951 nt of DNA from Escherichia coli (GCF_003334385.1 NZ_QOWN01000141.1), one strand, 5' to 3'. Shown: positions 1 through 951, counted from the stretch's first letter. Translations and numbers: made by a program. Notes: generated from the letters alone by a model not told the origin.

Positions 1-45
1 CCCCTGCAGCGGGTCATAATAGCGGTGGCGGTTGTAATACAGGCC
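1..45 (-). other. Start of the Rhs repeat-associated core terminal motif ([15 protein letters not shown]), truncated by the window edge
   Basis: Seen in sequence: codons 303-317. Established knowledge: in Rhs, TcC and teneurin-type YD proteins the YYxxRxRYYDPxxGR motif immediately precedes the conserved DPxGL core boundary, after which the variable C-terminal toxin begins. Confidence 0.8.
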
Positions 46-951
46 GGACTCCTCATCATACTGCTGCCCCGGCAGGCGGATAAGCTGCTGCAGCTGATGC
101 GGGTTCTCTTCATTCAGCAGGTTGCCCCATTCATCATATTCTGCGCACCACGCTGTTGCCCCTTCCGTGCTGATGAGCGCCAGCGGCAGGCCGCGATGGT
201 CGCAGTGGTACAGGTGGATTTTTCGCGCCGGCGTGTACACCGGGTCCATCTGGTTTTGCATCTGCTCCACGGTCAGGCCGCACGATGCCAGCCAGCGGCG
301 GCTTTCCTCACTCACCCGGTCAGCCAGGATTTCACTTTCCAGCCGGTCGAGCATCTGCACCAGCACCGGCGGGAACACCACACTGCCACCGTCTTCGCCG
401 CCGGACTGCTGAAGGGTATCCGCCAGGCTGCGGCGCTGCGTTTTCGCCAGCTCACCGGTGGCGGTTTCAACCCTGATGAGTGGCGTGAAGCTCCCCGGCT
501 GATAAATCGTCTGGATGCGGGTTCTGTCGTTCTGTATCGTGGTCAGGCGGTCGCCGTCCCAGCCGTACCAGGTCACTTGCGGTTTCCGTGACAGCGACAT
601 CCAGCCCGTCAGGTCCCGTTCACGCCGCCACACCCGTTTTGCCACCCTGCGGCCCAGCGGGTCGTAAAGATAGCGACTTTCGACCAGCGGCTCTTCATAT
701 TGTGTCCGCGTGTAGTGCACCAGCCGGTGCTGACTGTCGTAATGGTACCGGTGAGTCCGCTCATCATCCGTGCGGATAACCCCTTCCGGGATGAGGTCGG
801 TTTTCTCTGTCAGCCTGCCGTGACGGTCATACCGGTAAAGATAGTGCGCGTCACGGGCGATACGGTTATCCGGCCACATGCTGAGGGTGCTGTCCGGGTG
901 CAGCTCCGGGTCGGGCAGGCGGTTACCTGCCGGGTCTGTGGCATACGGGAT
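1..951 (-). CDS. rhs: Rhs-family protein (YD-repeat polymorphic toxin core), internal fragment; 5' and 3' ends both outside the window
   Basis: Seen in sequence: the reverse complement read in frame from position 951 gives 317 codons with no stop: [317 protein letters not shown]. It contains repeated YxYDxxGRL-type (YD) motifs and ends in the RYYDP motif typical of the Rhs repeat-associated core. Established knowledge: this motif series matches the enterobacterial Rhs core as I recall it. The paralog (rhsA, B, C, D type) cannot be resolved from 951 bp, so the symbol is given at family level only. The ORF track lists no minus-strand ORF, presumably because this frame has no stop inside the window. 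Confidence 0.93.
115..144 (-). other. YD-repeat motif (protein level): [10 protein letters not shown]
   Basis: Seen in sequence: codons 270-279; YDxxGxL pattern. Confidence 0.65.
187..216 (-). other. YD-repeat motif (protein level): [10 protein letters not shown]
   Basis: Seen in sequence: codons 246-255; Y-x-x-D-x-x-G-L spacing matches the YD repeat. Confidence 0.65.
241..420 (-). other. YD-free segment within the Rhs core (Gly/acidic stretch followed by a helix-prone stretch)
   Basis: Seen in sequence: codons 178-237, [60 protein letters not shown], contain no YD motif, unlike the flanking sequence. Inference: the composition (L, E, R, Q rich after a GG-E-D-GG stretch) suggests a helical insert interrupting the beta-rich repeat array. 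Confidence 0.5.
544..570 (-). other. YD-repeat-like motif (protein level): WYGWDGDRL
   Basis: Seen in sequence: codons 128-136; a degenerate YD repeat with W substituting for Y, in aromatic-x-aromatic-D-x-x-x-R-L form. Confidence 0.55.
652..672 (-). other. YD-repeat motif (protein level): YLYDPLG
   Basis: Seen in sequence: codons 94-100, followed by RRVAKRV; a YDPxG-type YD variant. Confidence 0.7.
721..747 (-). other. YD-repeat motif (protein level): YHYDSQHRL
   Basis: Seen in sequence: codons 69-77; YD core followed by a basic residue and L, the same pattern as the neighbouring repeats. Confidence 0.7.
811..843 (-). other. YD-repeat motif (protein level): [11 protein letters not shown]
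   Basis: Seen in sequence: codons 37-47 of the minus-strand frame; fits the Y-x-Y-D-x-x-G-R-L consensus of Rhs/YD repeats. Confidence 0.75.

Follow-up and report, generated by a model that had tools for sequence, protein, structure and literature searches.

The stretch of DNA examined here, 951 nucleotides (nt) from Escherichia coli (GCF_003334385.1 NZ_QOWN01000141.1) and called the window below, raises the question of which gene it belongs to, which part of that gene it represents, and why it begins and ends where it does. Our analysis indicates that the window is almost certainly the 3′-terminal 951 nt of the G+C-rich core of an E. coli clade I Rhs element (rhsA/rhsB/rhsC/rhsF), read on the minus strand. 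The first descriptions of E. coli Rhs cores date back to 1984, and the content of the window is already known and ordinary. A preliminary description had judged the locus to be well-described biology rather than novelty, and rightly so: the encoded segment is identical to annotated E. coli Rhs proteins and for that reason carries little weight for discovery.

Minus frame 1 holds 317 sense codons with no stop across window positions 1–951, and the other five frames contain 1–19 stops each. Its translation has six YD (tyrosine-aspartate) dipeptides, at amino acids (aa) 41, 71, 96, 272, 298, and 312, so that the 317 open codons and at least six YD motifs first described for this strand were both found again. 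Residue-shuffled translations contained 1.5 such dipeptides on average, and 0.2% of them reached six or more. The motif [YWF]D..[GHL].[LRVI] fits four of the six (shuffle mean 0.14), three to four of the dipeptides count as canonical, and a WD variant, WYGWDGDRL, occurs at aa 129–137. The G+C content is 62.0% (0.57–0.66 across 150-nt windows), and at this composition the open frame by itself is modest evidence: after mononucleotide shuffling, the open stretch averaged 146 codons with a maximum of 316, and 0 of 2,000 shuffles gave 317. The decisive evidence is homology. The NCBIfam equivalog NF041261 ("RHS element core protein") matched with E=3e-207, and the alignment spans profile positions 913–1229 of 1261. 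The translation scored 691 bits over 317 of the 1,261 positions (2.2 bits per position), the same rate as a full-length relative with 2,647 bits over 1,261 positions; the curated cut-off of 2,000 bits refers to the whole protein and is out of reach for any 317-aa fragment. TIGR01643 (YD repeat) also matched (E=2e-7), and in this terminal region Pfam RHS_repeat gave no more than sub-threshold matches. Coding in minus frame 1 is confirmed by the G+C content of the three codon positions (0.67/0.44/0.76) and by the polymorphic sites among 59 related copies, at which the ratio of synonymous to non-synonymous changes is 32:27 in minus frame 1 versus 9:50 in plus frame 1.

The identity and domain layout of the segment were observed directly. 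An AlphaFold2 model of the 317-aa fragment, built on 42 relatives, had a mean predicted local distance difference test score (pLDDT) of 82. Consecutive β-strands run through aa 37–164 (block-mean pLDDT 76–93 from aa 31), five helices lie between aa 165 and 234, and β-strands resume at aa 243–312. The top Foldseek matches were Rhs cocoons only (Tse5, P. protegens RhsA, Tse15, and Advenella and S. bongori Rhs); teneurins and Tc toxins ranked next. Alignments to the solved Rhs structures cover aa 17–164 and aa 237–316 and skip aa 165–236; the aa 1–164 stretch aligns to residues 863–983 of Tse5 and 1179–1313 of S. bongori Rhs. In the RHS domain, H246, Y248, C250, D251, G254, P256, L259, and W268 are invariant in our alignment A1. 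Together with the Pfam RHS and TIGR03696 matches, these results bear out the prediction that a profile search of the translation would return an Rhs/YD-repeat protein. The same preliminary description had placed the window in the interior of an Rhs core gene. The Rhs core stands, but the window is the 3′-terminal quarter of that core and not generic interior, and 12 of the 59 full-window copies are orphan fragments.

Copy number and the genomic contexts of relatives were also observed directly. Megablast located the window DNA in 3,888 of 5,426 complete E. coli genomes. A genome holds a median of five such places, and nearly all of them are chromosomal. The best identity was 99.8% (two mismatches), shared by three equal matches at three loci, and over the 317 aa the protein was 100% identical to the Rhs proteins of strains H8 (L001) and JNEC-KY203 (L003). 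The DNA identities of the K-12 genes to the window were 99.3% for rhsB, 98.7% for rhsA and ybfO, and 98.1% for rhsC; for rhsD and rhsE they were 78%. The closest copy of all was found in a metagenome contig (L050 1–5145, OCFZ01000070.1), which has an rhsC locus and a single mismatch, at position 547. Two further metagenome contigs had two mismatches, one carrying a main-type copy (L028) and the other an orphan-type copy (L054). The rhsABCF and rhsDE subfamilies have been distinguished in print, as has clade I of Jackson et al. 2009, with cores at several loci that are "almost identical" and a G+C content of 62% as a hallmark of Rhs cores (PMC2935791). By sequence comparison, the window is placed in E. 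coli clade I, the rhsABCF subfamily.

The relatives further indicate what follows the window. Beyond position 1 their protein reads RYITQDPIGLKGGWN..P....DPLGL, after which the copies diverge to unrelated tips. The hyperconserved core end, DPxG-(18)-DPxG / PxxxxDPxGL, a hallmark of both the autoprotease and the junction to the tip, is located 15–100 nt beyond position 1 and is present in 10 of the 10 relative copies compared; its second motif is DSMGL in two ybfO-type orphan copies and in L050. In this family a G+C-rich core (about 62%) gives way to an A+T-rich tip. Past position 1 the relatives' sequences diverge within about 60 nt, and the window ends about 100 nt short of the junction between core and tip. 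Because the relatives carry the DPxGL motifs and the tip beyond position 1, the cleavage site, the toxin, and the immunity gene are outside the window.

In solved homologues, the C-terminal conserved region spirals into the cocoon, seals the shell, and holds an aspartyl autoprotease (PMC8765631). The 317 residues comprise the last YD hairpins of the cocoon, then a clade-specific helical insert of about 72 residues, then the first half of the RHS repeat-associated core. By analogy, that core would spiral inward and plug the shell, and its aspartyl autoprotease would release the C-terminal toxin by cleavage. Just left of position 1 come the motifs for this cut, DPxGL...PxxxxDPxGL, followed by the variable tip and the immunity gene. 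The toxin-cocoon mechanism is well supported by homology, and from the same homologues we infer a cocoon and autoprotease function for the window product. The closest matches in sequence and fold are type VI secretion system (T6SS) effectors, and this supports the notion that the protein works like them, not that it is one of them. At the DNA level, the segment is a dispersed, near-identical repeat of about five copies per genome, homogenised among paralogues.

Several points weigh against this account. Neither the 5,426 complete genomes nor 58 metagenome loci (those matching a 79-nt pattern from the window) contain a 100% DNA match to the window, the best copy having one mismatch. None of the parts that define the protein and its locus falls within the window, be it the motifs at the C-terminus, the N-terminal domain, the tip, or the immunity gene. 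The VgrG that would translocate these proteins has been called "unclear" (PMC7216683). Type VI delivery of clade I Rhs proteins is putative, toxin delivery being suggested by homologues and the literature.

Table 1. Coordinates of features in the window, of its best matches, and of main/orphan repeat pairs in related loci
Feature	Locus or contig	Coordinates	Strand	Basis or remark
Open reading frame fragment, C-terminal quarter of E. coli clade I (rhsABCF-type) Rhs core	window	1..951	-	no stops; NF041261; DNA 98-99.8% to rhs genes
Last YD-repeat β-hairpins of cocoon wall, aa 1-164	window	460..951	-	motifs, AlphaFold2 model, and alignments
Canonical YD motifs	window	826-831, 736-741, 661-666	-	motif scan
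Lineage-specific helical insert, ~72 residues, aa 165-236	window	244..459	-	alignments and model
Pfam RHS PF03527, aa 245-281	window	109..219	-	E=5e-16, model positions 1-37 of 38
TIGR03696 RHS repeat-associated core, positions 1-42 of 76, aa 272-316	window	4..138	-	profile match
Position equivalent to Salmonella P2	window	24..59	-	-35 at 59..54 (ATGATG), -10 at 36..31 (TACAAC), transcription start ~24
Direct-repeat unit common to full-length rhsC-type core and downstream 5′-truncated orphan (K-12 ybfO type)	window	1..951	.	divergence points
Best match	yibF-rhsA-yibA, strain H8			2 mismatches
Best match	ybfA-rhsC-ybfB, strain MB50			2 mismatches
Best match	rpmE-linked rhsF-type gene, strain JNEC-KY203			2 mismatches
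Main/orphan repeat pair	L002	7130-8080 and 9001-9951		
Main/orphan repeat pair	L007	5278-6228 and 7149-8099		
Main/orphan repeat pair	L052	218-1168 and 2089-3039		
Main/orphan repeat pair	L062	3379-4329 and 5250-6200		

The ends of the window coincide with the ends of a repeat. In rhsC-type loci, a full-length main gene is accompanied by a downstream, 5′-truncated orphan, with the two repeat units 1,871 nt apart from start to start (Table 1). In each pair that we compared, the main copy and the orphan part company precisely at position 952. Beyond position 951 the main copies read GCGGATATCC... and the orphans read ATCAATGCCCAGGTTACATATAAT..., which is the end of ybfB; the core DNA diagnostic of the main gene there is GCGGATATCCAGATT. 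At the other end, main and orphan in L002 already have different bases directly before position 1, and the K-12 genes rhsC and ybfO do not share the first codon past position 1. Main and orphan are 100% identical over all 951 nt in the metagenome contigs L052 and L062. These boundaries were observed directly and, since both ends match main/orphan divergence points, the window has the same extent as the longest direct repeat in an rhsC-type locus.

Other explanations of the window were weighed against these results. That the true gene is instead a plus-strand open reading frame (25–591, 188 aa) has virtually no chance of being correct. Plus frame 1 does have a single stop and an open stretch of 196 codons, and long antisense open frames are expected in coding DNA of 62% G+C. 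However, the 188-aa product had no match in NCBIfam, PADLOC, or PHROGs, and 9 synonymous against 50 non-synonymous polymorphisms are the substitution pattern of non-coding DNA. We discarded this frame on both grounds, and the better plus-strand frame that had been named as a possible refutation did not appear. With the minus-strand Rhs core retained, the window might still come from a 5′-truncated orphan rhs fragment, a ybfO-type silent cassette downstream of rhsC-ybfB, and not from a full-length rhs gene, in which case the end of an immunity gene, not more core, would lie right of position 951. K-12 ybfO matches the entire window at 98.7%, orphans lose their homology to the main core right at position 951 of the window, and the 12 orphan-type copies among the 59 include L054, with only two mismatches. 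But the other 47 full-window copies run on into core DNA, as does L050, the closest copy, and between the window and the ybfO-type orphans of K-12 and MB50 there are 12–14 differences. An orphan origin is thus unlikely in our view. We lean somewhat more towards than away from a different explanation, namely that assembly collapsed a repeat and the window is the resulting contig (a unitig between branch points), possibly a consensus of at least two identical or near-identical copies. Both of its ends fall on main/orphan divergence points (952 in all pairs, position 0 in L002), the copies in L052 and L062 are identical over exactly these 951 nt, and 951 nt is an odd length. The window is also a mosaic: each of its alleles is known from other copies, none is private, and none of the records searched matches it exactly. 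The same sequence would, however, result from a single copy if the main and orphan repeats of the strain were identical. Collapsed or not, walking outward from the window is ambiguous on both sides.

The last alternative adds to the Rhs core reading without replacing it. Besides coding, the 3′ end of the window might hold an internal promoter like Salmonella P2 or EHEC (enterohaemorrhagic E. coli) rhsFint; the toxin tip and immunity gene could then be transcribed independently of the full gene and behave like a toxin-antitoxin pair. In Salmonella, the P2 transcription start site is 89 nt upstream of the PxxxxDPxGL codons, in conserved core DNA, and expresses tip and immunity (PMC7043789). In EHEC, rhsF and rhsG are likewise transcribed from internal sites, which lie upstream of the autoprotease site (PMC7618764). 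When the published P2A sequence (PMC7043789 S2 Fig) was aligned to the minus strand of the window, the P2 start mapped to about position 24. A TATGAT hexamer at 60..55, with TTATCC 17 nt upstream, would be a better −10-like site. The aligned hexamers are degenerate, though (ATGATG 3/6; TACAAC 4/6 and without the final T), and a scan for sigma-70 consensus promoters found none on either strand. As for the EHEC promoters, RhsF and RhsG come from another lineage, whose DNA does not match and whose aa identity is 37% over 67 residues, and we rejected carrying their internal promoter over to the window, the Rhs lineages being unrelated. An internal promoter in the window is accordingly doubtful.

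Searches for other kinds of elements in the window gave nothing of note. Rfam (E≤1) returned just one chance snoRNA-like match, at 19 bits against a gathering score of 47. The terminator scan found one terminator-like site, which is at chance level, and the scan for repeats within the window found short chance repeats only. PADLOC and PHROGs held nothing relevant to it.

The clade I Rhs core represented by the window cannot be attached to one gene. The near-best copies are spread over the rhsA, rhsC, and rhsF loci, which made it impossible to assign the window to one paralogue by its alleles, and every window base is present in some other copy (no private allele among the 59). It is not placeable at one locus because it is a multi-copy repeat with about five copies per genome. 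The window is in this respect a caution, as the locus, the identity of the tip, and the immunity gene are not to be inferred from one copy, or from a collapsed consensus, of such a repeat. At the rhsA locus of strain LR-31 (L004 8512–10655), the annotation of rhsA consists of two pieces, a DUF6531 fragment of 395 nt and a pseudogene of 1,782 nt. This locus is about 2 kb shorter than that of H8, which implies an internal deletion of the core, and a 99.6% copy of the window is retained in it.

The neighbourhood was investigated on relatives, not on the window's own flanks. The preliminary description had expected vgrG or hcp genes nearby and an N-terminus with a PAAR or VgrG-binding domain. Neither expectation held in the relatives. 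No vgrG, hcp, or EagR gene was found at the rhsA, rhsC, and rhsF loci of the nearest relatives within the 9–14 kb fetched on each side, nor any vgrG or hcp at the K-12 rhs loci in stretches reaching 2–5 kb beyond each rhs gene. The neighbours were the housekeeping genes mtl, sel, kdp, nik, rpmE, and priA, along with small immunity-like genes and orphan fragments. It has been reported that this E. coli Rhs clade is not vgr-linked (PMC2935791; PMC7216683), and a vgrG/hcp neighbourhood is not the norm for clade I.

As to the N-terminus, full-length relatives carry a clade-specific one (MSGKPAARQGD..., with a DUF6531 plug) about 2.7 kb right of the window, and it is absent from orphans. The full-length relative has no Pfam PAAR match, only DUF6531 at aa 46–123. 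Its first 45 residues (MSGKPAARQGDMTQYGG..., L001 12516–12645) include a segment, residues 2–29, that weakly resembles the last ~28 residues of the PAAR proteins 4JIV and 9RCE (E=0.02–0.6). Its plug domain (aa 48–145) is a clear homologue of Tse5 1–95 and RhsA 235–335. Clade I Rhs proteins have been described as PAAR-containing (PMC7216683), despite the lack of a Pfam PAAR match here.

The coincidence of the window with a direct repeat bears on how Rhs toxins diversify. The 951-nt block is the homology common to a full-length core and a downstream orphan tip cassette, and recombination across it could swap the tip. Such a block lets a full-length core capture the downstream orphan tip, which is the accepted route by which Rhs toxins diversify. 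In Salmonella, main/orphan recombination across 522 bp of homology is a precedent (PMC3967940), and "fusions" of rhsA and rhsC have been noted between EDL933 assemblies (PMC7216683). In L050 a full-length rhsC-locus core is joined directly to a ybfO-type orphan tip, and the main tip and ybfB are missing. Such a contig could have arisen naturally, since recombination across the repeat is expected to leave this deletion product, or else by collapse during assembly. From these cases we infer tip switching driven by recombination across the block. A search of the window for Chi sites found none.

Comparison with known systems gives the following picture. The E. coli RhsA/B/C/F core (Hill's rhsABCF; clade I; NF041261) has the same 62% G+C, YD motifs, helical insert, and RHS domain as the window and does not differ in kind; the exact allele combination of the window was in none of the records searched, the best copy having one mismatch. 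The orphan rhs fragments (K-12 ybfO, and unnamed pseudogenes downstream of ybfB) share the same 951-nt segment at 98.5–100%, together with the next ~60 nt of the core end, but have nothing of what lies right of position 951 and carry a different tip. RhsD and RhsE of E. coli align end to end at the DNA level with three gaps, but at 78% identity only. Their architecture over the window is presumably the same, helical insert included.

The solved T6SS Rhs effectors (Tse5, 8CP6; P. protegens RhsA, 7Q97; A. baumannii Tse15; S. bongori and Advenella, 8QJA-D) have the same order of a YD shell followed by the RHS-associated core. They are 21–31% identical to the window protein and are without the ~72-residue helical insert. 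Their N-termini are complete PAAR or VgrG-linked ones and their genes are next to vgrG, whereas the clade I relative keeps a PAAR-strand remnant of about 28 residues. The main/orphan rhs locus of Salmonella Typhimurium (Koskiniemi 2014; Starosta/Koskiniemi 2020) likewise has a near-identical 3′ core block as a recombination substrate and an internal promoter at the equivalent position, but the P2 hexamers are not conserved in the window. It belongs to clades II/III, is located in Salmonella pathogenicity island 6 (SPI-6) beside T6SS genes, and shares 522 bp at 95%, compared with 951 bp at 98–100% here. The EHEC S-loop 44 array vgrG-EagR-RhsF-RhsFI-RhsG (clade IV position, nfrB-cusS) also encodes Rhs polymorphic toxins, with the same C-terminal DPxGL module. 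It shows no DNA similarity to the window, reaches 35–37% aa identity over the last 67 residues only, has a PAAR/transmembrane domain N-terminus, and is vgrG-linked.

The helical insert is the sole feature of the window without a tie to a described function. It measures about 72 residues at aa 165–236, versus 27 in Tse5 and 3–4 in S. bongori Rhs, and corresponds to aa ~1062–1133 of full-length E. coli RhsA. The modelled helices are at aa 165–169, 176–183, 195–209, 215–223, and 228–234, and the 10-residue block means of pLDDT are 84–94 except for one block of 63 (aa 181–190). Among the 42 relatives, L176 is invariant and L204, E205, E207, S214, S217, W220, L221, and L226 are nearly so. A 111-aa query spanning the insert found 189 clusters only among 1.84 billion representatives. 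The insert is confined to this Rhs lineage, and no solved cocoon has it. It is improbable, though conceivable, that it serves as a functional adaptor, with docking or gating as candidate roles; such an adaptor might explain the action or export of clade I Rhs proteins despite no vgrG linkage and no complete PAAR domain, and might also bear on their retention in T6SS-less strains such as K-12. In the representative library, one protein of 509 aa (P0001) holds four partial copies of the aa 195–300 region with odd junctions. We do not favour a real tandem duplication in this case; with its repeated pieces the protein looks chimeric, and it probably arose through mis-assembly of the rhs repeat.

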